In this document: piece by piece, positions 29,872-50,619 of the stretch
Layout of the letters: the number at the start of each line of letters is the position of its first letter
Numbering within the stretch: position 1 is the stretch's first letter
Origin: Leptolyngbya sp. BL-A-14
GTDB taxonomy: Bacteria; Cyanobacteriota; Cyanobacteriia; Leptolyngbyales; Leptolyngbyaceae
DNA length: 64,000 nucleotides
Assembly (NCBI GenBank): GCA_041937185.1
Contig: CP166621.1
Coordinates: 2,388,571-2,452,570 of the forward strand
Direction: 5' to 3'
Made by a program: the position numbers and the translations under genes
Notes under the pieces: model-generated
Databases searched by the model: none
What the model was told of the DNA's origin: nothing
What the model saw: only the letters and a program-made list of their open reading frames with translations

Positions 29872-31794
29872 TTAACTAAGCACAGGGGCTTGTACCAGAT
29901 CTTCAAAGGTCGTTTGGCGTTCACGATCGAGTTCCTGTATCCGCTGTTCTTCCGCACAGATTTTTTTGTAGTAGAACTGGCCTAGTTCCGGTGTCGCAGC
30001 ACAGTCGGTTTTTTCCCACAGCGAAAGGAAGTGGCGACGGCGTTTTTCGCACATGACCTTTTCCATCGACGCTACAGCGGAACGGATCACGAGTGCCGAT
30101 CGCAGCACATCAATGTCCCCGGTTTCGTCGAGTTGAAACATGGCATAAATCTTGCGCATGTCGTTGGGGATGTCGGTGCAACGGTCTTGCAGCAGCGTCA
30201 TTAAATCGAGCGACGGATTGGCTTGAACATCAAACCCTTCATCTTTGAGGGCCAAAATTTGTCGCCACAGAAAGCGGTGGTGGGACAGGCTAAATTCCAG
30301 GTCACGAGCTTCCAACGCTTCGACGATCGCCTGCCGATGCAGCGGTTTGTGTAGATAAAGGCGCAGCAGTTGCCCTTCCGATTCTTCGAGCAAATCGCGT
30401 TCACTGCTGGTTTGCCACTTTTGCGATCGCCCATGCCACCGTTCGCCGCGCACCTGAAGCCGCAGATTATCTTCGAGTTGCCGCATCAAGCGACTGTTGC
30501 CCTGACTCAACAACTCAGCACACTTCTGAATGTAGTGGGTGCGCAGCATGGAGTTGGGCAGGTTGCCCAGCAGTTTGACGATCGCCTGCACGCTTTGCTG
30601 AAACTGGTCAGCCTGGTTGAGATCGTGCCCAGCGATCGCTTGCTGAATCTGCCAATCGAGCCAGAGCGGCGACTCATCCAACAACTGCTGGTAGTCGGCT
30701 GGCGTATTGGATTGGAGAAACTCGTCGGGATCTTTGCCCGTAGGAATGTTAAGAATGCGAAGTTGGACTTCGCCCTGATAGGCCAGTGCTGCCACTTCGC
30801 CGATCGCCCGTTCCGCTGCTTGAGTGCCCGCACGATCGGCATCAAAGTTAAAGACAATCCGCTTGGATTCGGTATAGCGCAACAGTTGACGCACCTGAGC
30901 GAGACTCAACGCTGTTCCCATTGATGCGACTACGTTGGTAATGCCTGCACTGTGGAGCGCAATCACGTCAAAATAACCTTCTACGACGACAGCTTGATCC
31001 TGTTTCGCGATCGCAGCTCGTGCTTTATCCAGCGCAAACAGAATGTTGCCTTTGTCGAAGAGTTCCGTTTCTGGTGAGTTGAGGTATTTGGGCTGTTCAT
31101 CCCCCAACGATCGTCCTCCGAAACCGACCACTCGCCCTTGCAGATCGTGAATTGGAATCATGAGGCGATCGCGAAATCGATCGTAATAGCTACCCGTTGC
31201 CCCTTTGCGCGGCACAATCAGCCCTGCTCGCTCCACCAGTTCCACAGGATAGTGCTTCTGCTCGACCAGGTAGCCAAACAGCGTTTCCCATCCGGCAGGC
31301 GCGTACCCCAATTGAAACTGCTGAATCGTCGTTGCGCTCAACTTTCGTTGCGTCGTCAGGTACTCTAAGGCGGCTTTCCCCTGGGGTTGGTTGAGGGCAT
31401 GTTCAAAAAAGCGTGCCGTCAGCGCCAAAATTTCGTGGAGTTGTTCTCGTACTGAAATCTGTCGCTGGAGTTCCTGTCGCTGCGCTGGCTCCAGCGTTTG
31501 TACCGAGACCTGATAGCGTTTTGCCAGATCCAGCACCACTTCGCTGAACGATCGCTTCCCTAACTCCATCAGGAACTTGATCGCGTTGCCTCCCGCACCA
31601 CAGCTAAAGCAGTAATAGAACTGCTTGCTGGGACTGACCGTAAAGCTAGGCGACTTGTCATCGTGAAAGGGACACAATCCCGTAAAGTCTTTCCCCAGCT
31701 TTCGTAGCACCACATGCTCAGACACCACGTCCACAATGTCTGCTCTCTGGCGGACTTGCTCGATCGTATCGGGGTGGAGGCGGGGGATGTCCAT
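29872..31794 (-). CDS. dnaG: DNA primase
   Basis: CPFHDDKSPSF zinc-binding domain, TOPRIM EGYFD, C-terminal helicase-interaction region. Confidence 0.93.
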   Translation of the reverse strand: MDIPRLHPDTIEQVRQRADIVDVVSEHVVLRKLGKDFTGLCPFHDDKSPSFTVSPSKQFYYCFSCGAGGNAIKFLMELGKRSFSEVVLDLAKRYQVSVQTLEPAQRQELQRQISVREQLHEILALTARFFEHALNQPQGKAALEYLTTQRKLSATTIQQFQLGYAPAGWETLFGYLVEQKHYPVELVERAGLIVPRKGATGSYYDRFRDRLMIPIHDLQGRVVGFGGRSLGDEQPKYLNSPETELFDKGNILFALDKARAAIAKQDQAVVVEGYFDVIALHSAGITNVVASMGTALSLAQVRQLLRYTESKRIVFNFDADRAGTQAAERAIGEVAALAYQGEVQLRILNIPTGKDPDEFLQSNTPADYQQLLDESPLWLDWQIQQAIAGHDLNQADQFQQSVQAIVKLLGNLPNSMLRTHYIQKCAELLSQGNSRLMRQLEDNLRLQVRGERWHGRSQKWQTSSERDLLEESEGQLLRLYLHKPLHRQAIVEALEARDLEFSLSHHRFLWRQILALKDEGFDVQANPSLDLMTLLQDRCTDIPNDMRKIYAMFQLDETGDIDVLRSALVIRSAVASMEKVMCEKRRRHFLSLWEKTDCAATPELGQFYYKKICAEEQRIQELDRERQTTFEDLVQAPVLS

Positions 31795-31892
31795 TGGAGA
31801 GGGGGTTAGGGTGTGGGGTGTAGGGTATAGGGAAATGAGGTCTACATATTGTCGCAAATTTGGTTAGGAATGAGCGGTGCCGCAATCAAAGC

Positions 31893-32718: not shown

Positions 32719-35619
32719 ATGCTGACCAAACTCTGGACGTTTCTGAACACCGACATTCAGGACTTGAACTGGAAACAGGCTGGAGAGATGACCAAAACCG
32801 GAACCGATGCCGCCAAAGCGGTGTTTGACCTGGCAAAAACGGTCAAAGAGCAGCAGCCCAAAGTCGAAACCCTGAAGCCCTACATCGGGCAGATTTCCTC
32901 CTTGCTGGATGTGCTGAACGCGCCCTTTGGGCAAATTGTCAAAGACACCATTCCCTTTGCGCCCCTTGCCATCACCATTCTGAAGCTGGTGTGTGACGTT
33001 ACCCACAAGGAGCCGAGCCTAGAGCAGTGCGTTGCCCTAGTGAGTCAGGTCGCCTACCTGGAAAGTTTGCAGGTCATCCTGAAGGGAACGCCCGATCTCC
33101 TAACTCGCCTGGGTGAAGTCCCTGTCTCAGAAGCGATCGCCCTGCAAATCAGGAAGTTAGGCGACCTGGAAATCGACGATCGGGATGCTCGCAAAGCCAT
33201 CCTTTACTTTCACGAATCGAAGCTAGCGACTGCGTTTAACGAGGTTCTTAAAGCACGATTGGAGCAAGCTGGACTGGAACCAGCGGAAGCCCAAACGCTC
33301 ACCGATCGCGTGGCGCGTAAGACCGATGAATATATGCCGCCTGCATTGGCTCAGGTGGGCGACGGGGTTAAACGCTTGGTGGAGTGGTATCGCCTGGGTG
33401 GGCGCGAGGTGCTGGAAAAATATCTCAGCATCGATGATTATCTGACGCAGCAAATTCAGACGCGCCCGCTGGAAAAGGTCTTTGCGGAGAACTTCACCTT
33501 CCGCGATATCTACGTGCCGTTAAAGGCCCAGTTCATTCAGCGTAATGGGGAAGCGGACAAGGACAAAGAGCCCGTTCAGCTAGAGCAGTGGGCGAAGGAC
33601 TTGCTGAATGATGACCAGAAGCGCGATCGCGTCATGTTCATTCAGGGTGGCCCTGGACGCGGGAAAAGCGTGTTTTGCCGCATGTTTGCCGACTGGGTGC
33701 GGCAGCACGAACATCCCCGCTGGACACCCATTCTCATTCGCCTGCGCGACATCCGCACGTTAGAAAAGGACTTTGAGGAAACCCTGCGAAAAGCCGTCGA
33801 TCGCGACTTTGCCCGTAATGATCCGGGCTGGTTGACTGATCGCAACATTCGCCTTCTATTTCTGCTGGATGGCTTTGATGAACTGCTGATGGAAGGCAGA
33901 ACCAGCGGTGGGCTGGAAGAGTTTCTCAAACAGGTGGGGCGCTTTCAGGAAAGCTGCAAGGACAACGCCGAGAAGGGACATCGGGTGCTGATTACGGGGC
34001 GATCGCTCTCCCTCCAGAGCATCGAACGTCTCATGCCCGCTAACCTGGAGCGCGTCGAAATTTTACCGATGGATGACGCGCTGCAAGAACAGTGGTTTAC
34101 CCAATGGGGCAAATTGATCAACGCCGATCCAGTGCATCTCAAGGCGATTTTGCAGGATGAACGCTTACCCGATCGCGTACGAGAACTGGCGCGAGAACCG
34201 TTACTGCTTTACCTCCTTGCCGCCATGCACCGCGATGGTGAATTCAAGCTGGAGATGTTTGAAGGTGCCAGTAGCGCCCAAGCAAAGGTTCTCATTTATG
34301 AGCGCACTCTGGATTGGGTATTAAATACTCAGCGCACCGACGGGCTAAATCAGAAAATCACTGAATTCCAACCGGAAAGTCTACGCCGCATTCTGGCAGA
34401 AGCCGGATTGTGTGTTGTGCAGTCTGGTGGCGAGTACGCTCCTATCAAAATGATTGAAAACCGTTTGAAAGGAGATGAAAAAGCAAAAGAACTGCTTGAG
34501 AACGCACGAGAACGCCTTGAAGGTGATCCTGATGATCCGCTCCGTAATGCCTTAGCCGCATTTTATCTCCAGCCTGGACGTGCGGACAGCGGTTCGGTTG
34601 AATTTGCTCACAAGAGCTTTGGTGAATTTCTCTGCGCCGAACGCCTCAAGGAAGCAATACTCGACTGGACAAACCGCATTCAGGAACGTCGAGGCGAGAA
34701 AGATCAGGTTTCAACCGACAAAATGGACGGACAAATTTATGATCTTCTGGGGTACGGCGGACTAACCCCTGAGATTGTTGAGTACCTGATGGCATTATTA
34801 GACCAAAGCCCTGAATTTGATCCGGTGCGTCTGTTTCAACGACTGGAAGACTTCTATCTCCGTTGGTGCGATGGAGAATTTATTGATGCCGATCCGCCGA
34901 CGTTACCACAGCAAACGATGCGGATGCTAAAGGAGCAACTGCCCAATCGAGAGAAACCGCTAGGACAGCGACAAGTCGATGTTTACACTGGACTCAACGT
35001 GATGATTCTGCTGTTGGAATTACATCGTTATGCTCAGAAACGAGACGACTTGAAGGATCAAATCGTCTTTTATCCAAGTGGAAACGTTTCCGGGAAAGTA
35101 AGCTCCCCATTTCAATTATTGAAAGTCATTCATTACAGCGATTGCCTTGGGCTTGCAACCTTTACTGACACCACTGGCTGGTTTCTTTCCAGTGCCAACC
35201 TCTTCCGTGCTAACCTTTCCAGTGCCGACCTCTCCAGCGCTAATTTCTTCCTCGCCAACCTTTCCAGTGCCAATCTCTCCAACGCCAATCTCTCCAACGC
35301 CAATCTCTCCTACACCTACCTCTCCAGTAATCTCTCTAACGCCAATCTCTCTGGGGCTAGCCTTTTCCAAGCCTACCTTGGCACCGCTGATCTAACTCGT
35401 GCCAACCTCTTCCGTGCTAACCTTTCCAGTGCCAAATGTTTTCTCACCAATCTCTCTAGTGCTAACCTCTCCAGCACCAATCTTAGAGGGGCTGATTTAA
35501 GGTGTGCCGACCTCCAAGATATTTTCTGGGATGAGGATACGAACTGGGAGGGTGTGCAAGGGTTAGAGACAGCGGTGAATGTGCCGGAGGCGCTGAAGCG
35601 GCAGTTGGGGATGGAGTGA
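32719..35619 (+). CDS. STAND NTPase: helical N-terminal domain, NACHT core, C-terminal pentapeptide-repeat sensor
   Basis: Walker A FIQGGPGRGKSVFC, Walker B LLFLLDGFDEL, and C-terminal runs of A(N/D)LSxA pentapeptides (SANLFRANLSSADLSSANFFLANLSSANLSNANLSNANLS). Confidence 0.8.
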   Translation: MLTKLWTFLNTDIQDLNWKQAGEMTKTGTDAAKAVFDLAKTVKEQQPKVETLKPYIGQISSLLDVLNAPFGQIVKDTIPFAPLAITILKLVCDVTHKEPSLEQCVALVSQVAYLESLQVILKGTPDLLTRLGEVPVSEAIALQIRKLGDLEIDDRDARKAILYFHESKLATAFNEVLKARLEQAGLEPAEAQTLTDRVARKTDEYMPPALAQVGDGVKRLVEWYRLGGREVLEKYLSIDDYLTQQIQTRPLEKVFAENFTFRDIYVPLKAQFIQRNGEADKDKEPVQLEQWAKDLLNDDQKRDRVMFIQGGPGRGKSVFCRMFADWVRQHEHPRWTPILIRLRDIRTLEKDFEETLRKAVDRDFARNDPGWLTDRNIRLLFLLDGFDELLMEGRTSGGLEEFLKQVGRFQESCKDNAEKGHRVLITGRSLSLQSIERLMPANLERVEILPMDDALQEQWFTQWGKLINADPVHLKAILQDERLPDRVRELAREPLLLYLLAAMHRDGEFKLEMFEGASSAQAKVLIYERTLDWVLNTQRTDGLNQKITEFQPESLRRILAEAGLCVVQSGGEYAPIKMIENRLKGDEKAKELLENARERLEGDPDDPLRNALAAFYLQPGRADSGSVEFAHKSFGEFLCAERLKEAILDWTNRIQERRGEKDQVSTDKMDGQIYDLLGYGGLTPEIVEYLMALLDQSPEFDPVRLFQRLEDFYLRWCDGEFIDADPPTLPQQTMRMLKEQLPNREKPLGQRQVDVYTGLNVMILLLELHRYAQKRDDLKDQIVFYPSGNVSGKVSSPFQLLKVIHYSDCLGLATFTDTTGWFLSSANLFRANLSSADLSSANFFLANLSSANLSNANLSNANLSYTYLSSNLSNANLSGASLFQAYLGTADLTRANLFRANLSSAKCFLTNLSSANLSSTNLRGADLRCADLQDIFWDEDTNWEGVQGLETAVNVPEALKRQLGME

Positions 35620-39557: not shown

Positions 39558-41318
39558 ATGAATTTTACGATCGCTCAACTGAAAAGCCGCTTCGAGCAAG
39601 CGCTGACTGCTGCCTTTGGTGCTGACTATGGATCAGTTGATCCAATTCTTGTGCCTGCTAGCAATCCCAAATTTGGTGATTATCAGGCGAATGTGTCGCT
39701 ATCGCTTGCGAAACCACTAGGTAAGGCACCCCGTGCGATCGCAGAACAGATCGTGCAACAGCTTGATGTGGCTGACCTGTGCGAAACACCGACGGTTGCT
39801 GGCCCAGGCTTTATTAACCTGACGTTGAAAACAAGCTATCTGGAAGCGCAGATTAAAGCCATTCAGTCTGATCCGCGTTTGGGAGTGGCACCGATCGCCA
39901 AACCCCAGCGCGTAATTGTGGATTATCCTAGCCCCAACATTGCCAAAGAGATGCACGTGGGACACTTGCGGTCTGCCATTATTGGGGACTGCATCGCGCG
40001 CATTTTGGAATTTGTGGGTCATGACGTTCTACGTATCAGCCATGTGGGCGACTGGGGCACTCCGTTTGGCATGCTTATTGCTTACCTGCGCGAAGCCTAT
40101 CCAGAAGCACTGACGGCAAATGAATCTCTAGACTTGGGCAACCTGTCCACGTTTTATCGGCAGGCAAAACAGCGGTTTGATGCCGACGAAGCGTTTCGTG
40201 AGGCGGCGCGATTATCCGTGGTACAGCTTCAGGCAGGCGATGCGGATACACTGCGTGCCTGGGAAATTGTGTGTGAATTATCCAGGCGTTCTTACCGAGT
40301 TATCTACGATCTGATGGGCATCGCACACGTCCTTGAACGGGGAGAGTCATTCTACAATCCACTGCTTGAAAGTGTGGTCGAAGATCTGAAGGCAAAGGGG
40401 CTATTAGTAGAGGACGGCGGTGCACAGTGCGTGTTTTTGGAGGGCTTTACGAATAAGGAAGGCAAGCCGTTACCGTTGATTGTGCAAAAGTCTGATGGCG
40501 GCTACAACTACGCGACGACAGACTTGGCAGCTATTCGCTATCGCGTGAAAGAGGACAAAGTACAACGGGTGATCTACCCAGTCGGGATGGAGCAGACCAA
40601 TCACTTTGCCCAAATTTTCCAGGTCGGACGACGGGCAGGCTGGATTACGGATGCGGTGGAGTTCATTCACACGCCGTTTGGGTTGGTACTAGGGGAAGAC
40701 AACAAAAAGCTGAAGACGCGATCGGGTGAAGCAGTCCGACTCCAAGATTTGCTGGATGAAGCGATCGCCCATGCCCATGCCGACCTTGAAGCGCGACTGA
40801 AAGAAGAAGGTCGGCAAGAGACGGACGAGTTTATTGCCAATGCGTCTCAAGTTACGGGCATCAGCGCGATTAAATACGCTGACTTAAGCCAGAACCGTAC
40901 CAGTAACTATATTTTCAACTACGACAAAATGCTGTCGCTGCAAGGTAATACGGCTCCTTACATGCTGTATGCCTATGTGCGCGTGCAGGGTATCAGCCGT
41001 AAAGGTCAAATCGATTTTGAGCAGTTGGGGGCTAATGCTGCCATTGTGTTGAAAGATGAATCCGAACTAACGTTGGCAAAACACATTCTGCAATTAGACG
41101 AAGTCCTGGCACAGATTGATCAGGATTTATTGCCCAATCGACTCTGCCAGTACCTGTTTGAGCTAAGCCAAAAGTTCAATCGGTTTTATGAGCAGTGCCC
41201 CATTCTGGATGCTGAGGAACCGTTGCGAACTTCTCGGCTGATTTTGGCTGATTTGACAGCAAGATCGCTCAAGCTGGGACTCTCGCTACTCGGCATTTCT
41301 GTGTTGGAGCGGATGTAA
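39558..41318 (+). CDS. argS: Arginine--tRNA ligase
   Basis: HVGH class I motif ([14 protein letters not shown]) and KMS-like region. Start at MNFTIAQLK; the ORF opens 78 nt earlier. Confidence 0.93.
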
Positions 41319-41437
41319 AGTTTGGGGAGTAGGGAGTGGGGAATAACGACGTTGAGGATTGACCGCAGAGGCGCGGAGAGCGCAGAGGTTTCTTCTGTGC
41401 TATTTACGTTTCTGCGGTATGGCGGGGGCAAGCAATT

Positions 41438-41821
41438 TCAGCGTTGATTCGATCGATTAGGAGAGAGTGGTTGGACAGGTCTAACCGTCGGATTCGTTAA
41501 TCCACCGTTGGGACTATTAGGAGTGAGAAACGAACCGGAAGGGCTCACTGTGTTGCTACCTGTGGTGATGCGGCTGCCGTCTGGGTAATAGTACGTTTTA
41601 GAGCCATTTGCTCCTGGGACGGTAACGCTGGGATTAACAACCGTTCCAGTGGGGGTGACGATTGCGCCACCTTGATAAATCCGTGTGCCGGATGGGTAAT
41701 TGAGCAAATTGCCGCTGTTACTGGGACTAACGCTGCCGGAAGTTGTTTGGGCACTCACGGCTGTTGTTGTAGCGACGCTCACCAGCAAACTCAATAAACT
41801 ACGCACAACCAGAGCTTTCAT
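41438..41821 (-). CDS. Secreted low-complexity (T/S/G/P/N-rich) protein
   Basis: Signal peptide MKALVVRSLLSLLVSVATTTAVSA, then repetitive PSG/TG-rich sequence. Confidence 0.45.
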   Translation of the reverse strand: MKALVVRSLLSLLVSVATTTAVSAQTTSGSVSPSNSGNLLNYPSGTRIYQGGAIVTPTGTVVNPSVTVPGANGSKTYYYPDGSRITTGSNTVSPSGSFLTPNSPNGGLTNPTVRPVQPLSPNRSNQR

Positions 41822-41934
41822 TGCGGAATCTCGGTAGATCACGCTGATCTTAGATCAAACGCTGCATCTACGTCGTTCATCCAAAGGGAGTTCCTTGCCA
41901 ACCACATTCATCATTTGACGTAGGTGAGAAAAAT

Positions 41935-42888
41935 ATGACCAATGCCTCACAAATTAAGGAATACGCAACCGTTGTAGAACAGTCCGGTTCGCATCCAAAC
42001 TATTTTCAACTGCAACGTCAACTTCGGTTACTCATTGATCGATATCTTTCGACCGAGCATCTTCACGATCGCCTTCAAGACCTGCCCGTTCAATTTGCCA
42101 ATCCCCAAACACGTCCCTGGCAACCCATCGATTGGCACGCGATCGAGCGTCAGCAAATTGTGGGCATTGATCCCGATGTTTTTCTGTCGATCCTTGTGGG
42201 AGCGATCGATACCGAAGCTCCGATTCGGCAATATACCCAAACCAGTCGGCAATATCTGGAAACACTGCATCCTCAGCTTGCACGCTTTGTCGGAGGCACG
42301 ATCGCGGCAGACGGTTCACTGCTAGAGCCAGGCTTGTGGGAAAAAGAAGAACGTCAACATACTCCAGCACTGCTCAAAATCTATGCTCAACTAACCGGTG
42401 AAAAAATAACGCCGACTCCTCACGAAGCAAGACTCTACCAGCCGTCTGATCACCCTCACATGGCTCTCTATCGTCACGGGCTGCATCGCGTTGCCACGGA
42501 ATATGGTGCCACCTGTCTCTACCTCTGGTTGATGGCACACACAACCGGAGCATTGCGCACGGTGCTGGAAGAACTGGTGCGGGATGAAATCAACCACATG
42601 ACCAAATTCTGGGGCTTTGGTGTTTGGGCCTATCCTGAAACGTCGCTGCTGACGCTTGGTCATACGTTACTGAAAACGACGAAGCAACCGACCTACAGCC
42701 GCGATCGCAGTAGCCTCGTCGGCACTTTACACCGTATGACGGGTGTTCTCCACTGGCAAGACTGGACATGGACAAACCGTGCCACCTTTGCTTATACCTG
42801 TACCGTTATCTTGCAGCGCTTGTGGGGTTGGAGCAACAGCCTGACGCCGGAGTATTTGGAAGGGTTGTTTGGGAAGCGGGAGTTTTGA
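41935..42888 (+). CDS. Ferritin-like diiron-carboxylate protein (AurF/N-oxygenase-like)
   Basis: Two ExxH motifs (EKEERQHT, RDEINHM) spaced as in four-helix-bundle diiron enzymes; 317 aa. Confidence 0.5.
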   Translation: MTNASQIKEYATVVEQSGSHPNYFQLQRQLRLLIDRYLSTEHLHDRLQDLPVQFANPQTRPWQPIDWHAIERQQIVGIDPDVFLSILVGAIDTEAPIRQYTQTSRQYLETLHPQLARFVGGTIAADGSLLEPGLWEKEERQHTPALLKIYAQLTGEKITPTPHEARLYQPSDHPHMALYRHGLHRVATEYGATCLYLWLMAHTTGALRTVLEELVRDEINHMTKFWGFGVWAYPETSLLTLGHTLLKTTKQPTYSRDRSSLVGTLHRMTGVLHWQDWTWTNRATFAYTCTVILQRLWGWSNSLTPEYLEGLFGKREF

Positions 42889-42942
42889 GTTTTGAGTTTT
42901 GAGTTCAGTTGCAGTCAGCAGTTAACGGTCAACCATCAGCCG

Positions 42943-43323
42943 TCAGTTTTTTTGCCTTTCGCCCTTGCTTCCCCTGCTTCCCCTGCCTCTCTGCTCCTCA
43001 CCCTCAGCATCAATTTCCGCTCGCCAACGGTAAGCACGCAAGTTGATGCGTCCTTGAGCGTCGAACTGAATGCCTTCGGCTTCGAGGAGCGATCGCTGTA
43101 AATGATCACTGCCGTAGCGCACAGGCGATTCGGAGATCTCGCCCTTCGCGTTAATCACTCGATGCCAAGGGAGATCCATTTCTGGTGCTACACGAAACAG
43201 TGCGTAGCCGACTAAGCGTGCTCGTCCCGGCAAGTTTGCCAACTCTGCCACTTGTCCGTAAGTTGCTACCTGACCGTAGGGAATTTGTTGCACGATCGCG
43301 TAGATTGCATTGTAGGAAGACAT
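42943..43323 (-). CDS. Alkyltransferase-like (ATL) protein with an MGMT-family DNA-binding domain and no catalytic Cys
   Basis: Helix-turn-helix YGQVAELANLPGRARLVG, and PWHRVINAKG where Ogt/Ada have PCHRV. Confidence 0.75.
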   Translation of the reverse strand: MSSYNAIYAIVQQIPYGQVATYGQVAELANLPGRARLVGYALFRVAPEMDLPWHRVINAKGEISESPVRYGSDHLQRSLLEAEGIQFDAQGRINLRAYRWRAEIDAEGEEQRGRGSRGSKGERQKN

Positions 43324-43362
43324 AAAGGAAAGAATAAAGGCTTAAGGATAAAGGATAAGTTT

Positions 43363-44067
43363 TTAGCCTTCATACTTCTCTCTTCCTCCCTGCCGTCGCC
43401 AGAAAATTGCAACGCGTTCTTCCCATTGCTGCCAGTAATGACTGATGGTCTCAAGGTCAAACCAGAAGACTTCAGCGGGCAGATCGGGAATGGCGATCGC
43501 CAGCAGCGCATGATTCAAGTCCAAATCATAATCCTGGTAGGTGTGCTGCACGGCTCCCCAATAGGCAACGACCTGCAAAGGGTAATCGTTCAAGCGGTCT
43601 AAGGAATGTTTGGGACGATCGGCAGTTTTCCATTCACACAAGCACGCCATGCCCTCGTAACTGGCAACACAATCGACTTTTCCGGCATAACCAAGCTCGT
43701 GATGAAAGACAGTGCCTTCGACGAGTCGCACATCATCTACCGCTAGAATTACAGGCTTAATGCTCTCCCAATAGGGTTTGATGCCATCGGGGCAAGATAC
43801 AACCTCACCTTGCAGATACCGCTGCACCTGTTTGTGCGTCCCGGTGCCGCGCCGACTCGCTGTACTGGTGATACGAGCCGCTTCTTCAGTACCGACTCGT
43901 TCTTTCCAATGGGCAAGCGCATCCCGCTGTTGCTGCGATCGTGTCGCATTGAGAATGGTGCTGACGCTGGGCAAGCGATCGCCACGATCGTTCACGTAAT
44001 ACTGCCTGCCGTTTTGCCGCTCTTGTTTTGCGCTGAAAATAGGAAGCTTTTGAGAGTCAGACATCAT
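43363..44067 (-). CDS. PD-(D/E)XK nuclease family protein (phage exonuclease / Cas4-like fold)
   Basis: GT..H, GKVDCV...EWKT (D, E-x-K) nuclease motifs. Confidence 0.55.
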   Translation of the reverse strand: MMSDSQKLPIFSAKQERQNGRQYYVNDRGDRLPSVSTILNATRSQQQRDALAHWKERVGTEEAARITSTASRRGTGTHKQVQRYLQGEVVSCPDGIKPYWESIKPVILAVDDVRLVEGTVFHHELGYAGKVDCVASYEGMACLCEWKTADRPKHSLDRLNDYPLQVVAYWGAVQHTYQDYDLDLNHALLAIAIPDLPAEVFWFDLETISHYWQQWEERVAIFWRRQGGREKYEG

Positions 44068-44433
44068 ACCGTTGCGGCAGTTGTGTTCAGTTCACCTTTC
44101 TGGATTGTAGTCTTTCTGTACTGCTTAAACCGATGTCTATGCTCCATGTTAAGAAAGGCGAGCGTCTCAAAAAAACAGCCATTGGAAGCACCCAAACATA
44201 AATTACGCCTAATCAACTGGGAAACCGTATAATTTATTCTTAATCTACTATTTATCGATAGATTTACCGTATATTATTTTGAAACATCAATACGGCTAAC
44301 CTCAACCGCCAATGTCGCCCAACGACTGGTCTGGACTCTCGGCAGCAGTAAGTTGCCAATTCGTCGAGTCTCAGCAGTTCTTGGCGAAGCATTTGCGCGT
44401 GCCAGGGTCGGCAGAACGTCCAAAGGAGTGACA

Positions 44434-44907
44434 GTGAAGAACGTACGACGGGTCAGTGAGAAGTTGACTGTGACTGGGCAAGTGCAACCAGACCAACTTC
44501 AACAAGCAATTCAAGAAGGGTTTAAGTCTGTTTTGAACTTACGATCGCCAGATGAACTGGGCTTTGAAAAAGACGAACAACAGCTTGTAGAAGCACTGGG
44601 ACTGCATTACGTGCATATGCCGCTGAAGCTAGAGGCGATCGACGAAAACCTGATTACCGCCATTTTGAACCAGTTGGAACATATGCCTAAGCCTGCAATT
44701 GTGCATTGCGCTGCTGGGTTTCGATCAGCGTCGATCGCCATTTTGAGCCTTGCCATTCAAGAAGGGTTAACTCCAGAGCAAACTCTGGCCAAAGCGCGAC
44801 AGCTTGGGTTTGATTTTTTCGACTACGCCTGCGTCAATCCTCAGTTAAAGCAACGCTTTATGCGATATGTGAACGGGCGTGCAAAGGTAGCTGCAATCGC
44901 GAGCTAA
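44434..44907 (+). CDS. DUF442/TIGR01244-family CX5R phosphatase-fold protein
   Basis: HCAAGFRS (C-x5-R) P-loop. GTG start at 44434 is preceded by aaggag 6 nt upstream; the ORF opens at 44353. Confidence 0.6.
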   Translation: MKNVRRVSEKLTVTGQVQPDQLQQAIQEGFKSVLNLRSPDELGFEKDEQQLVEALGLHYVHMPLKLEAIDENLITAILNQLEHMPKPAIVHCAAGFRSASIAILSLAIQEGLTPEQTLAKARQLGFDFFDYACVNPQLKQRFMRYVNGRAKVAAIAS

Positions 44908-44936
44908 TGAACTCCCCACTCCCTACTCCCCACTCC

Positions 44937-45599
44937 TTACCGATGATTTTGTACGCCCACTTGCTGGCACATCTCAAGCAGTGGGCAGGTTGAACAACGA
45001 GGTAAATCGCCGGTGCAAATGTGTTTGCCAAACGGCACCAGTCGTTCGTTGATTTCAATCCAGTAACGCTGGGGTAACTTTGCTTCCAGCGCTGGCAACG
45101 TTTTTTCGGGGTTGCGCGTTTGCACATAGCCCCAACGGTTCGTGACGCGATGCACATGAATATCGACGCTGATGGATGACTGCTTGCAAGCAATGCCCAA
45201 CGTGAGATTGGCACATTTAGGGCCGACACCTGAGAAAGAGACGAGCGTATCAAAATCGCAGGGAAGCTCGTCACCATAGGTGTCCACAAGTTGGCGAGCG
45301 ATCGCCCAAATCTGCGGTGCCTTGGTTTCGTGAAAAGTCGAGTCGCGGATCAGGTCTTCAATCTCATCTGTGGTGAGGCGTACCATTGCTGACGGGGTGC
45401 GGGCGCGATCGAACAATTTGATCGCAACTGGAAGTGACGTTTCATCCCTCGTACGAATGGAGATGATGCAGGCAATGAGTTGCTCAAATGGCGACGTGTA
45501 GCCCAGTTCTGCCAACGCAAACATCGCTGCTTTCGGGAAGGGACGAACGGCTTCTCGCAGCAAGATCATTGCCTGATCAATATCAAAGGGTGGTTTCAA
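44937..45599 (-). CDS. nth: Endonuclease III (HhH-GPD glycosylase with 4Fe-4S cluster)
   Basis: FSGVGPKCANL helix-hairpin-helix with catalytic Lys, VDIHVHRV Asp, C-x6-C-x2-C-x5-C (CTGDLPRCSTCPLLEMC). Confidence 0.8.
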   Translation of the reverse strand: MKPPFDIDQAMILLREAVRPFPKAAMFALAELGYTSPFEQLIACIISIRTRDETSLPVAIKLFDRARTPSAMVRLTTDEIEDLIRDSTFHETKAPQIWAIARQLVDTYGDELPCDFDTLVSFSGVGPKCANLTLGIACKQSSISVDIHVHRVTNRWGYVQTRNPEKTLPALEAKLPQRYWIEINERLVPFGKHICTGDLPRCSTCPLLEMCQQVGVQNHR

Positions 45600-45742
45600 A
45601 AGGCTGAATGATGAAGGCTAAAGGCTAAAAAGGGTTGAAAGATAAGAGCGATCGCTTTATCCTTCATCCTTAATACTTTAGACTTCAGTCTTTGCCTTCC
45701 TTCAACAGGTAGAATATCTACGACCAACGTAAGGAATCCACT

Positions 45743-46615
45743 ATGTCTCAGGCAGCGATCGGCATTATTGGCGGCAGCGGACTCTACAAAATGGAGGCGC
45801 TAAAGGATGTAGAAGAAGTGACGATCGACACGCCCTTTGGCAAACCGTCGGATGCCATCATTCTGGGGACGATCGACGGTACGCGGGTAGCGTTTTTGGC
45901 ACGGCATGGCAGAAACCACCATCTCACGCCATCAGAACTGCCGTTTCGCGCCAATATCTACGCGATGAAAAGCTTAGGCGTACAGTATTTGATTTCTGCT
46001 TCCGCCGTTGGGTCGCTTAAGCAAGAAGCCAAGCCGTTGGATATGGTCGTGCCGGATCAGTTCATCGATCGCACTAAAAATCGCATCTCCACCTTCTTTG
46101 GCGATGGCATTGTTGCCCATATTGCCTTTGGTGATCCCGTTTGTCACAATCTGGCAGGGGTTTTAGCCGATGCCGTTGAAAGCCTCAATCTTACCGATGT
46201 CACACTGCATCGTGGTGGTACGTATGTGTGTATGGAGGGTCCTGCCTTTTCGACTAAAGCCGAATCCAACCTGTATCGCAGTTGGGGTGCGACCATCATC
46301 GGGATGACCAACCTGCCAGAAGCCAAACTGGCGAGAGAAGCTGAGATTGCCTACGCCACGTTAGCACTAGTGACGGACTACGACTGCTGGCACCCCGATC
46401 ATGACAGCGTCACCGTCGATCTGGTCATTGCCAATCTTCAGCGCAATGCCGTCAACGCGCAAAAAGTGATTCAAGAAACCGTCCGTCGCCTCACGGAGAA
46501 TCCACCGGCATCTGATGCCCATTCGGCACTCAAGTACGCGATTCTCACACCGTTGGATAAAGTGTCGGACGCAACAAAGGCGAAGCTGAATTTGCTGCTC
46601 CAAAAGTATCTTTAA
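45743..46615 (+). CDS. mtnP: S-methyl-5'-thioadenosine phosphorylase
   Basis: [11 protein letters not shown]-terminus and the PNP/MTAP family core. Confidence 0.9.
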
Positions 46616-46619
46616 CAAA

Positions 46620-47108
46620 TTATGCAGACGGTGGAGGAATAATCTCGATGCCGTATTGAGGCGCGGTGGTTAGAATTTTGTCCAAGTCTTCAGGGCTCAA
46701 CGGAACCCCGGGCGTAATCTGACCATTCACAGCCTTGCCAACGTCAGCAATAAAATGCTCAAAGCCAGCAGGAGTCACCCAAATCATGACTTTGGCGGGC
46801 GTAGCAGTCGTATTGGTAAAGCGGTGAAGCTGACCTTTGGGCGAATGCAGGAACGTGCCAGCGCTAGCAACGAGGGTACGATCGTCAAGCTGAAACTCGA
46901 TCTCTCCTTCTTGCACGTAGAATGATTCATTTTCGCGTGTATGCCGATGGGGAGGTGTACCCCCTTGAGGTGCCACAATGACCTCAAAGAGTGCATACGC
47001 TTCACCCGTCTCTTCACCAATGGCCTTAAAGGTATAGAGGTCTTGACCGAAGTAGTAAGAACGTCCCTGACCAGGCTCAACAAATAGTCCGTTCTGATGA
47101 ATTGTCAT
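46620..47108 (-). CDS. Cupin domain protein
   Basis: GTPPHRHTRENESFYVQEGE, the cupin motifs G(X)5HXH...E and G(X)5PXG(X)2H. Confidence 0.7.
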   Translation of the reverse strand: MTIHQNGLFVEPGQGRSYYFGQDLYTFKAIGEETGEAYALFEVIVAPQGGTPPHRHTRENESFYVQEGEIEFQLDDRTLVASAGTFLHSPKGQLHRFTNTTATPAKVMIWVTPAGFEHFIADVGKAVNGQITPGVPLSPEDLDKILTTAPQYGIEIIPPPSA

Positions 47109-47316
47109 GACAACCAGCACTCCTTTTCTCGTTAGTTAAAAGCAGCCAGTTAACTGCTTGATTTTAGCGTGAAGAAAAAATCGCATCGCAGCCGCCAGAT
47201 AAGATTTGGAGGCAAGGGAGGAAAAACCGCATTTGCGACCCTGGCAATATCGGCAACGAAGAGTAAAGTATAAAAGGAACGATTGCTCGTCCTGACAGTC
47301 TTTTGGGAGGCAACGG

Positions 47317-47538
47317 ATGCAACAGGTTAATCTCAAGGACGCTGCCACTCAATTAGCGGATCTTGTTGAAGCAGCAGCCAGCGGCGAGGACGTTGTGATT
47401 ACCCGCAGCGATGGTGCATCATTCCAAATTGTTCCACTTGCAAAGCCTCGCCCCAAGTTTGGCAGTGCAAAAGGCTTGGTGAGCATATCTGAGGACTTTG
47501 ATGCGCCTTTAGAAGCTTTTGAGGACTATGCTCCATGA
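47317..47538 (+). CDS. vapB: Type II antitoxin (Phd/YefM- or VapB-like)
   Basis: 73-aa protein; 4-nt overlap with the downstream PIN-domain gene. Confidence 0.7.
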   Translation: MQQVNLKDAATQLADLVEAAASGEDVVITRSDGASFQIVPLAKPRPKFGSAKGLVSISEDFDAPLEAFEDYAP

Positions 47539-47921
47539 AACTTCTGCTCGATACCCATACGTTTCTGTGGTTTATCGAGGGTAGCTCTAATCTGAGTAAT
47601 ACAGCAAGAAGCTTGATTGAGGATGCAAAAAATCAGCGCTTTCTAAGTGTCGCCAGCCTTTGGGAGATGTCAATCAAGGTCAGCATGAGTAAGCTGATGC
47701 TCCAGATGTCATTCACTGATCTGGTGACCCAACAAGTCTACGGTAATGCGATCAATCTGCTTGAAATTCGAGCAGAGCATCTAGATGAGTTAGCAAAAAT
47801 GCCATTCCACCACAAAGATCCATTTGACCGACTGATCGTTGCTCAAAGCATCGTGGACAACATGGCTGTGTTATCGAAGGACAGTGCATTTGGAAGCTAT
47901 CCAGTAACGTTATTATGGTGA
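47535..47921 (+). CDS. vapC: VapC PIN-domain ribonuclease toxin
   Basis: LLLDTHTFLW (Asp1 region) ... SLWEMSIK ... PFDRLIVAQS conserved acidic residues of the PIN fold. Confidence 0.8.
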   Translation: MKLLLDTHTFLWFIEGSSNLSNTARSLIEDAKNQRFLSVASLWEMSIKVSMSKLMLQMSFTDLVTQQVYGNAINLLEIRAEHLDELAKMPFHHKDPFDRLIVAQSIVDNMAVLSKDSAFGSYPVTLLW

Positions 47922-48001: not shown

Positions 48002-48598
48002 TCAAAAGTAATCATTGATTGGATTTTTCTTCGCCCAAGATGCTACAGCACGTTCTACATCGTCTAAATTACCATCGACACCACGAATCCAGTGCTTGTA
48101 TTCATCACTGGGCAAACAAGAAGCAGCATAAATAAAAGCACGACGAATCCATGGAGTCATTTGGTTAAGGGATAATTTTCGACTGCGAAACCAAAAATCT
48201 TTCTTGCTTCGCCCCATAGCCAACAAAATTTCCCGCTTTGAGAAATCATCATCGAGCGCGTCATTATAAAGCTTGACATATTGGTCTTTTGAATTCCACT
48301 CTATATCTAATGCAAATGGTCTCAATAAATACATTCGGGAGTATTCGAGATGTGATGCAGTTGAAGTCTCATCCTTGTAAAAGCGGATGAGATCTTTACC
48401 AAGCAAAGACTTATCTGCAGGTGATAATGTGTCAAGTCTGAGCAAGTATTCAATGGTTTCACGTATTACTGGAACAAATTTACTGAAGTTATCAAAGATG
48501 GAGTCAAGTACAGCCGTATCACTAAGCTGCCCCAATCGTCGTAACAAAAACTTCAATAAGGAAAGATCTGGTTCTTCTTCTTCAATCTGCTCGTATAG
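48002..48598 (-). pseudogene. C-terminal helical-repeat portion of a defence-type reverse transcriptase gene, separated from its 5' part by the IS630 insertion
   Basis: The frame LYEQIEEEEPDLSLLKFLLRR... continues exactly from the sequence upstream of the IS once the IS and one TA copy are removed. The apparent ATG at 48613 lies inside the IS terminal repeat. Confidence 0.7.
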
Positions 48599-48615
48599 TA
48601 CAGCGTGTTGCATAA

Positions 48616-49221
48616 CTAATTGGTACAGTAACAGCAGTGAGCAAAGTAGTTTCGCAAGTCCCTACTCGAACAGAGGCTAACGCCCAGTTGTAATAGCTTT
48701 GTAATGGTTTCTACACTCTTCGGTACAAACCGCCGGATAAACGACTTCAACTGCCACCACAGGTGTTCAATCGGGTTGAACTCAGGTGAGTACGGCGATA
48801 AGTAAACAACCCTGGCTCCGACCGCTTCGATCATCTGCTCTATCCCTTCAACTTTATGGGCTTTGAGGTTATCCATCACCACCACTGCCCCCGGCCACAA
48901 CTTCGGGACGAGACGTGCGGACACAAACTGTTTGAAGTCTTCTCCTGTCATCGATTTGCCCAACGTTTGCATCGCCAGGATGGCGGTTTGACTAATCGCC
49001 CCAACGACGGTGATCCGGCGACCGCGGTAGAAGGGTTTGAGGTCATACACTCGTTGTCCCTTACAACTTCTTCCCCTGGTCTGCTTAACCCTTGCAGCAC
49101 TCCCATCTCGTCCAGGAAGACTAAATTTTCTGGCAGAACCGTACTGATCGTCCGCCAGTAGGCAACTCGTTGTGCTTGCTTATCCGCTGCTGCGGCTTGA
49201 GCACTGCGACAGGTTTTTTTT
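48616..49221 (-). CDS. IS630 transposase, DDE catalytic part (-1 frame; reached by programmed frameshift)
   Basis: LVFLDEMGV, DNLKAHK and SPYSPEFNPIEHLW DDE motifs. The frame stays open upstream of the first ATG back to the A8 run (49214-49221). Confidence 0.8.
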
Positions 49222-49617: not shown

Positions 49618-50619
49618 TATTTTCAAGGTTTAACTCGTCGATTGCCTTCTGGTATTCAGGCGATAGAGCATCATAATCAATTTCCTTGTAAGTGTCCTCA
49701 ATATCCATCTCAGCGAGTAAATCATAAAAGCATAAAAGCGCTCAGACAAAGTTTCAAGTTCTCGCTTCTCATTTTCTTTAAGATAAATTCTTCGGAAAAC
49801 ATCTACCGAAACAATTTTTGTCTTGTTTTGCTGAAGTGTAAGTCCATGGTTATCGAGTAAAGAACGTGCAATGAGCGTAAGATATTTGTAAGCTTCAGCC
49901 TCAGAGTCACAAAAAATTCTGAAGTCGTCTGAGTAGCGAACGTATTTCGCATCTTCCGAAAGCAAGATCTGGTCAATATCAGAAATAGTTACTTCAGCAA
50001 TTAATCGCGAAGCCGCAGAACCGACAGGTATCCCGTACGAGTATGAACCTGCCCAGTGAGCAATTAAGTTCTTCAAAGCCTTTGCATGCATATGACCAAC
50101 ACCCAAAGCACTGTCCATAGCATTGTCAATGCGATGTGTATAAAGCCTTGGGAAAAAGTCTGCAATATCTGCAATCACAACATAGGACGAGTCATACTTC
50201 TCACATGCATCGTGTGAAGCCTTCTGAAAGCTTCGATATGTATACTGATCAGAGAACATCCGTCCATCACTGTTTGGGGAAAACCTATAAGAATGAACAA
50301 TATTTTCAATTGTTGAAATCCTTTCTGATTCCAGTTTTTCACCAATCTCCTTAATAAGTGCTGTAAATACTAAGAAATCGAGTGGATCAAGTTGTGTAGA
50401 AATGCGGAAGCCGAAGCGGTGCTTTGGAACTAAACGCCGCCTAAATGGTCTTACCTTCCACGCTAATATGTCAGCCTCTTGAATTGATGCTTTAATTTTA
50501 TTCCAGTTATCTTCAATTGCATGAAATTCAAAAATATCAGGAAATATATCAGTATCGCCTGATGTAAGAGCATGCTTCAAAGCCCAATTCAAAGAAGAGT
50601 CCGTAAGTGTTAACGGCAT
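49618..50619 (-). pseudogene. Reverse transcriptase (Abi/UG-class, defence-associated type), N-terminal RT domain; frameshifted and interrupted by IS630
   Basis: RT motifs SYVVIADIADFFPRLYTH (motif A), GIPVGSAASRLIAEV (motif B) and YVRYSDDFRIF (motif C, YxDD). A 1-nt frame change near 49709-49745 moves to the frame ...MDIEDTYKEIDYDALSPEYQKAIDELNLENI, which crosses the IS boundary. Confidence 0.75.

Follow-up and report, generated by a model that had tools for sequence, protein, structure and literature searches.

We analysed a stretch of 64,000 nucleotides (nt; "the window") from the chromosome of the cyanobacterium Leptolyngbya sp. BL-A-14, in which positions 42943–45599 comprise four open reading frames (ORFs) encoding an alkyltransferase-like (ATL) protein, a PD-(D/E)XK nuclease, a DUF442 protein and endonuclease III (Nth). 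The nuclease was found to be a bacterial homologue of the MGME1 family, and the ATL gene lies directly downstream of it on the same strand. Our comparisons suggest that these two genes, the MGME1-family exonuclease first and the ATL second, form a minus-strand unit that is probably a lineage-specific operon of known repair genes. The initial annotation, made from the letters of the DNA, had the coordinates of all four ORFs right, and had suggested that their grouping could represent a damage-processing module.

An ATL protein and an MGME1-family nuclease

The ATL protein consists of a single recognised domain, the C-terminal DNA-binding domain of the MGMT fold (PF01035, DNA_binding_1, residues 4–85 of 126, E=3.7e-24), and the N-terminal AGT domain was not found in the Pfam scan. 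The closest solved structures among PDB sequences were those of Vibrio vpAtl (2kif, E=1.5e-20) and Schizosaccharomyces pombe Atl1 (3gva, E=3.9e-20), whereas true Ogt/MGMT chains matched with E-values of 1e-7 or worse. In the alignments, the motif LPWHRV matched VPWHRV of Atl1 and VPCHRV of Mycobacterium tuberculosis Ogt column for column, which placed Trp53 on W56 of Atl1 and on the acceptor Cys of the Ogt. Tyr22, Arg36 (the Arg finger) and Pro47 aligned with Y25, R39 and P50 of Atl1, residues that serve base flipping and contact with the alkyl group in ATLs (Tessmer and Margison review, PMC10779285). Trp53 is encoded by TGG, and the protein contains no cysteine at all. Among 120 ATL homologues from independent assemblies, PWHRV was present in 117 and ARLVG, which belongs to the helix-turn-helix and Arg-finger region, in 109.

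These results support the initial call that this MGMT-fold protein is an ATL, including the position of the Trp, and judged by its residues the predicted protein is a genuine and standard member of the family. The reading in which it is really an Ogt or MGMT with a misread Cys codon was considered and rejected. It has in its favour that TGG and TGY differ by one base, but a sequencing error cannot account for the same Trp in nearly all homologues, for the absence of any cysteine and of the N-terminal MGMT domain, or for best matches that are ATLs and not transferases, and we regard this reading as refuted. In public annotation these ATLs appear as 'MGMT family protein', the only name used by NCBI, or as 'methylated-DNA-protein-cysteine methyltransferase-like'.

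In common with S. pombe Atl1, vpAtl, Escherichia coli YbaZ/eAtl and Thermus thermophilus TTHA1564, the BL-A-14 protein has a single MGMT C-terminal domain of ~105 conserved residues, in which the acceptor Cys is replaced by the Trp of PWHRV and the Arg finger, the flipping Tyr and the alkyl-pocket Pro are retained (PMC10779285). It differs from known ATLs in a basic low-complexity tail of ~25 residues, rich in Gly, Arg, Glu and Lys (residues ~102–126, AEIDAEGEEQRGRGSRGSKGERQKN); most homologues are 102–112 amino acids (aa) long and lack this C-terminal tail. It also differs from Atl1 in that Arg69 of Atl1 aligns with Ser66, an Arg being present three residues further on. Its gene immediately follows that of an MGME1-like nuclease, a setting for which we found no report among the ATLs that have been studied, and our literature searches found no paper on ATL in cyanobacteria. 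ATLs have no transferase, glycosylase or nuclease activity and bind UvrA and UvrC (PMC10779285, PMC7835731). No uvr gene is present among the genes of the window.

The neighbouring nuclease had been described as a stand-alone PD-(D/E)XK protein with a D...EWK signature. The signature is real, but the protein is not an anonymous member of the fold, since it belongs to the MGME1 family, which is spread across cyanobacteria. Human MGME1 was the sole PDB sequence family with a significant match (E=7e-29, residues 30–223), the next match having E=0.28, and the BLASTP alignment showed 33% identity over 202 aa, that is, over the whole catalytic core. The RecB-type motifs of MGME1, defined as H, E, D, D/E-x-K and Q-h-x-x-Y (PMC3597694, PMC6237815), are represented by H78 (Ia), E117 (I), D132 (II), E145-W146-K147 (III) and Q165...Y169 (IV). 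H78, E117, D132, E145/K147 and Q165/Y169 align with H180, E223, D238, D251/K253 and Q271/Y275 of the human protein, and the motif residues were invariant in 24 cyanobacterial homologues. An AlphaFold2 model of the nuclease (pLDDT 93.3, pTM 0.90) was searched with Foldseek, and the top nine matches were all MGME1 (E 4e-18 to 7e-16, TM 0.70–0.88), the best superpositions having a root-mean-square deviation of 1.9–2.7 Å and TM of 0.75–0.88. The nuclease domains of DinG, RecE and Cas4 followed at ~4e-5, eleven orders of magnitude behind. Sequence, motifs and fold thus agree in making the nuclease a bacterial homologue of the MGME1 family, and its conserved active site indicates that it is most likely a metal-dependent, end-requiring exonuclease acting on single-stranded DNA and flaps.

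MGME1 (Ddk1-like) proteins have been described as mitochondrial and 'present exclusively in Opisthokonta' (Szczesny et al. 2013). Neither mitochondrial targeting nor an opisthokont host applies here: the gene is cyanobacterial and chromosomal and its product lacks an N-terminal extension, which makes the protein a homologue from bacteria and not the mitochondrial enzyme itself. While it shares the catalytic core, the five motifs and the predicted fold with human MGME1, it lacks a mitochondrial presequence, is shorter (234 aa, compared with mostly about 300–650 aa in the metazoan representatives listed) and has E-W-K instead of D-W-K in motif III. Pfam PDDEXK_1 and the Cas4 model TIGR00372 gave matches below threshold. 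Cas4 was rejected as an identity for the nuclease, the TIGR00372 match (E=0.006) being far under its cut-off and the structural match remote.

An exhaustive HMMER search returned 3,065 cluster representatives of the nuclease family (E≤1e-3), and the members sampled were of three kinds: cyanobacterial proteins (Gloeobacter kilaueensis, Lyngbya/Capilliphycus, Phormidium tenue), metazoan MGME1 (Priapulus, Platynereis, Lineus) and, lower in the profile search, proteins encoded on phage-like contigs that also carry PhoH and MazG-like genes and series of small ORFs. The core of human MGME1 was 34–37% identical to the cyanobacterial chromosomal proteins (115–126 bits), compared with 26–28% (about 55 bits) for phage-context members. 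Of the prokaryotic sequences sampled, those of the cyanobacterial family, and not the phage exonucleases, are therefore most closely related to metazoan MGME1. The BL-A-14 nuclease belongs to the same wider family as the phage exonucleases of PHROG 298 (phrog_298, E=2.6e-39), but phage-context members are much further from it than the cyanobacterial chromosomal proteins are (36% identity over 156 aa), and a scan of viral contigs with the nuclease alignment found no relatives. The JGI pipeline already names cyanobacterial proteins of this family 'genome maintenance exonuclease 1', and no paper on cyanobacterial MGME1 homologues was found in literature searches.

Conservation of the nuclease-ATL pair

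To compare gene contexts, one genome per GTDB species was scanned with the nuclease alignment under a strict pattern, which yielded 232 species; the family is also present in Gloeobacter. The nuclease gene was single-copy and chromosomal and stood in housekeeping contexts from Gloeobacter to Nostoc; the product of the BL-A-14 gene is 94% identical to the counterpart in Stenomitos frigidus ULC029. The best 80 of the 232 loci (given L numbers below) were compared by tblastn with the window proteins and by a neighbour-joining tree of the nucleases. ATL was found directly downstream of the nuclease in only one clade of this tree, which contains Stenomitos, Tildeniella, several metagenome-assembled genomes (MAGs) named 'Leptolyngbya' or 'Lyngbya', Cyanobacteriota JS3 and a Thermosynechococcaceae MAG, with nuclease identities of 68–94%. 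Adjacency was seen in L001–L009, L011, L014, L016, L020 and L021, so that the pair occurs on one strand in 14 of the 18 informative loci of the clade, with spacers of about 1–206 nt.

The flanks of the pair were far more varied. At least eight different kinds of gene, almost always convergent, follow ATL across the clade, and at least five kinds precede the nuclease: nine loci have Nth there on the same strand, four have a SLOG-domain protein, and the others have DUF442 or another gene. The adjacency was thus retained within the lineage in spite of rearranged flanks. The SLOG-domain gene (PF18171, LSDAT_prok, E=2e-64) replaces nth directly upstream of the nuclease and on the same strand in four clade genomes (plus strand: L013 5110–5850, L014 5159–5923, L016 5016–5792 and L017 73–822), and no copy is present in the window.

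Loss of the ATL gene was also observed in the clade. In L013 the nuclease adjoins a glycosyl-hydrolase gene, the one located after ATL in L011, which indicates that ATL was cleanly lost and the nuclease kept. L017 (Kovacikia), L015 and L022 likewise lack the adjacency, and within the clade ATL was deleted or relocated at least three times while the nuclease was retained. S-methyl-5'-thioadenosine phosphorylase (MTAP), which is functionally unrelated to DNA repair, remained close to the nuclease (at most ~2 kb away) in 12 loci, a frequency similar to that of nth.

Outside the clade, the adjacency was absent in all of the about 58 loci examined, which comprised about 46 Nostoc loci together with Tolypothrix, Hassallia, Brasilonema, Phormidesmis, Coleofasciculaceae, Allocoleopsis, Chroococcidiopsis, Myxacorys and Scytolyngbya. 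Three more distant chromosomal contexts of the cyanobacterial nuclease (one beside psaI-psaL, one in a MAG and one in Microcoleus) had no PF01035 neighbour. Conversely, ATL orthologues with 75–84% identity occurred in unrelated contexts with no nuclease nearby in three cases: between an ArsR-type helix-turn-helix gene and an M50 peptidase gene in Kovacikia minuta CCNUW1, and between genes for a 159-aa membrane protein and Usp in Phormidium sp. CLA17 and a JGI MAG. No ATL-nuclease fusion was found among 405 nuclease-family proteins. The adjacency therefore did not recur in the independent lineages examined. The initial annotation had named as the contrary case a nuclease that is a common housekeeping gene and has no link to ATL in other genomes, and this is largely what the comparisons revealed, the nuclease being cyanobacteria-wide and the adjacency confined to one clade.

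In the window, the nuclease and ATL genes point the same way with a spacer of 39 nt, in which a promoter and terminator scan recognised no terminator-like site. Since the junction is short, lacks a terminator and is more stable than the flanks, we infer that the two genes are quite likely co-transcribed. The divergent intergenic region upstream of the nuclease presumably holds the promoters of both the nuclease-ATL unit and the DUF442 gene; the repeats found in it were only short and weak. No LexA-type SOS box (RGTACNNNDGTWCB) was found in or near the cluster, the 16 sites in the whole window being at chance level (12.4 expected), and an Rfam scan of 41000–47500 gave no matches.

A different neighbourhood was observed in Nostoc. 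In 29–34 genomes (loci L035–L080), a gene pair encoding an XPB-type helicase (XPB_DRD, ResIII and Helicase_C domains) and a DUF790 protein is convergent to the MGME1-like gene, about 1–2 kb downstream on the opposite strand (for example, L035 3581–4795 and 4725–6731). Cluster analysis usually placed two small genes between the nuclease and this pair, one of them PIN-like by eye. This neighbourhood, with another couple of excision-repair type, is confined to one genus.

Neighbouring genes of the cluster and the window

The features of the cluster and of its surroundings are collected in Table 1.

Table 1 Features of the nuclease-ATL locus and other genes mentioned, in window coordinates.
Feature	Position	Strand	Remarks
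DnaG primase gene	29872–31857	-	upstream of the NACHT NTPase gene
NACHT NTPase	32719–35619	+	966 aa
317-aa protein	41935–42888	+	convergent with ATL
Heptamer AAAACTC, three in tandem	42880–42903		minus-strand reading
ATL	42943–43323	-	126 aa; MGMT C-terminal DNA-binding domain only; PF01035, PDB alignments
Basic tail of ATL	42943–43020	-	residues ~102–126
Spacer, nuclease stop codon to ATL start codon	43324–43362	-	39 nt; no terminator-like hairpin
MGME1-family PD-(D/E)XK (RecB-type) exonuclease	43363–44067	-	234 aa; sequence, motifs, fold
Divergent intergenic region	44068–44352	none	285 nt, AT-rich
DUF442 / BLH_phosphatase-like CX5R protein	44353–44907	+	PF04273
Endonuclease III (Nth)	44937–45599	-	220 aa; HhH-GPD domain
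MTAP	45743–46615	+	divergent from nth; synteny control
VapBC-type toxin-antitoxin pair	47317–47921	+	4-nt overlap
203-aa protein	48002–48613	-	no Pfam match
DDE_3 transposase fragment	48616–49050	-	
Reverse transcriptase	49630–50619	-	329 aa; RVT_1

The endonuclease III call was confirmed by the HhH-GPD domain (PF00730, E=4.8e-15), a match to TIGR01083 (E=1.3e-45) and the best PDB match, the EndoIII structure 9nzc (E=1e-40). The catalytic Lys lies in GVGPK and corresponds in the alignment to the mutated Lys of 9nzd, the Asp of VDIH aligns with that of VDTH, and the Fe-S motif C-X6-C-X2-C-X5-C can be read directly from the sequence (CTGDLPRCSTCPLLEMC). The score against the NCBIfam equivalog TIGR01083 was 155.4 bits, under the cut-off of 211.7 bits, and the protein therefore appears to be a somewhat divergent Nth, whose substrate range is uncertain.

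For the DUF442 protein, which had been counted as a CX5R phosphatase of the cluster, the domain (PF04273, E=6.5e-12, 46.2 bits against a cut-off of 26.1) and the CX5R loop (HCAAGFRS; PDB 3gxg, E=2.7e-6) are real, but its place in a nucleic-acid cluster did not hold. The gene lies on the strand opposite to nth, nuclease and ATL, and the best curated matches of its product were to the sulfur-transferase domain of Blh and to TIGR01244 (52.6, below the cut-off of 85.85). Among the compared loci, tblastn found it only in the window, L002 and L011, three related genomes, and it is thus a patchy insertion between nth and nuclease, a neighbour and not part of the unit. This gene may actually start further downstream than the TTG.

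ArgS, a secreted 134-aa protein and the unassigned 317-aa protein are encoded beyond the ATL side of the cluster. The 317-aa protein, which had no Pfam, NCBIfam or PDB sequence match, contains two E-x-x-H motifs (EERQH and DEINH) suggestive of a di-iron carboxylate protein and is kept near the cluster in L002, L003, L007 and L009. The tandem heptamers follow closely on the stop codon of ATL, in the intergenic region between it and the convergent gene. GC content showed nothing unusual across the cluster region. On the rough assumption that repair genes make up ~2% of ~6,500 genes, chance alone would give a few adjacent pairs of them per genome but only ~0.05 runs of three; the proper test of the grouping is the comparison of genomes.

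Further genes were observed at larger distances. The VapBC-type pair encodes a Phd/YefM-like antitoxin and a PIN-domain toxin. The reverse transcriptase (RVT_1, E=1e-13) adjoins the DDE_3 transposase fragment and the 203-aa protein, and this group may be a retron, a defence-type reverse transcriptase or the remnant of a mobile element. The NACHT NTPase carries an NNH3 N-terminal domain and C-terminal pentapeptide repeats.

Readings of the pairing and their meaning

From the family memberships, the conserved catalytic and binding residues, the gene order and its phyletic limits, we infer that the proteins most likely have the functions typical of their families. ATL would flip and bind O6-alkylguanine by means of the Arg36 finger, Tyr22 and the Trp53 pocket and, being unable to transfer the alkyl group, would pass the lesion to nucleotide excision repair by UvrA/UvrC. 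The nuclease would trim flaps or displaced strands in replication and repair synthesis, and Nth, further upstream on the same strand, would remove oxidised pyrimidines. The order MTAP<>nth-nuclease-ATL would have arisen once, in a Leptolyngbya/Stenomitos-type lineage, and the nuclease-ATL junction would have persisted probably because ATL depends on the nuclease promoter. The outcome would be co-expression of DNA-maintenance genes and not an obligate, dedicated lesion-processing machine, and it is plausible that an end-dependent exonuclease for single-stranded DNA and flaps could clear the excised oligonucleotides or flaps left by ATL-initiated nucleotide excision repair and Nth-initiated base excision repair.

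Several observations weigh against this explanation. The nuclease-ATL junction is more stable in the clade than either flanking junction, and in L021 the gaps that separate nth, nuclease and ATL measure 39 nt and ~1 nt, which resembles a tight three-gene operon. A sigma-70 consensus scan recognised no promoter for the unit. Both genes concern DNA damage, and they may be functionally coupled in this lineage. The stability of a promoter-less downstream gene is, by itself, no proof of shared function.

The damage-processing module of the initial annotation can accordingly be kept in part: the two genes do form a closely spaced, same-strand pair in most loci of the clade, but the pair is restricted to that single clade and absent elsewhere, and DUF442 stands outside it. 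In its full form, the proposal would be that ATL marks O6-alkylguanine for the co-encoded nuclease, which, perhaps together with Nth, would act on the marked site or on the strand that is excised or displaced, as a lineage-specific branch of, or alternative to, UvrABC repair. We consider such a dedicated module unlikely. The probable co-transcription of the pair, its persistence through many flank rearrangements, the adjacency of nth, nuclease and ATL in nine genomes with their tight packing in L021, and the position of the Nostoc nuclease 1–2 kb from the XPB helicase-DUF790 pair are all consistent with it. The nearest precedent is given by the fusions of AGT or ATL with endonuclease V, in which an alkyltransferase-fold lesion binder is likewise genetically coupled to a nuclease (PMC10779285); those are covalent fusions, whereas here two separate genes are involved and the nuclease is of a different fold. 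Arguing the other way, the adjacency has a single evolutionary origin, at least three lineages in the clade and every lineage examined outside it separate or lack the pair, no member of the nuclease family is fused to an ATL, the unrelated MTAP stays nearby about as often as nth, and the cluster has no LexA-type damage-regulon site. The characterised ATLs of E. coli, S. pombe and T. thermophilus act via UvrA/UvrC or XPG-type nucleotide excision repair and, to our knowledge, function without any MGME1-like protein; as far as we know, metazoan MGME1 likewise functions without ATL, which animals lack. We give little chance to a true nth-nuclease-ATL repair operon, in which ATL-flagged O6-alkylguanine, or intermediates of nucleotide or base excision repair, would be handed to the co-expressed exonuclease.

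Pure inherited synteny, by contrast, would make the genes ancestral neighbours with separate promoters and no tie in expression or function. The clade-restricted distribution with one origin, the similar extent of the MTAP synteny and the 100–206-nt spacers of L007, L011 and L014, which could hold promoters of their own, would fit this, but the spacers are very short in the window, L016 (~5 nt), L020 (~19 nt) and L021, no terminator separates the two genes, and the junction survived where both flanks were rearranged, so that a complete lack of coupling is improbable as well. An origin of the nuclease from a prophage or a defence system (Cas4- or RecE-like), with the cluster as part of a mobile element, was rejected on context and distribution and is close to refuted. 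The phrog_298 match, the distant family members on phage-like contigs and the toxin-antitoxin pair, transposase fragment and reverse transcriptase 3–6 kb away point in that direction; they are outweighed by a nuclease gene that is chromosomal, present in one copy and, from Gloeobacter to Nostoc, set among housekeeping genes, by the absence of close relatives in the viral contigs scanned, by immediate neighbours such as ArgS, MTAP and Nth, by the unremarkable GC content, and by the fact that Cas4 and RecE are only remote structural matches.

We prefer the reading of a lineage-specific operon of known repair genes, under which two known families each gain a member here, an ATL now correctly identified and a bacterial homologue of MGME1, and their pairing is a local arrangement and not a general system. 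The locus is also a natural place to test whether an ATL can work with a nuclease other than UvrC. Should the three genes prove to be a true repair operon, they would constitute a bacterial branch of alkylation repair that employs a type of enzyme for which only examples from the mitochondria of animals have been known, and would provide the first genetic handle on the role of MGME1-type nucleases in bacteria. That the cyanobacterial MGME1-like family is closer to the human enzyme than the sampled phage exonucleases are is relevant to where a human mitochondrial disease gene came from, and the function of MGME1 could be studied in this family as a tractable bacterial model.

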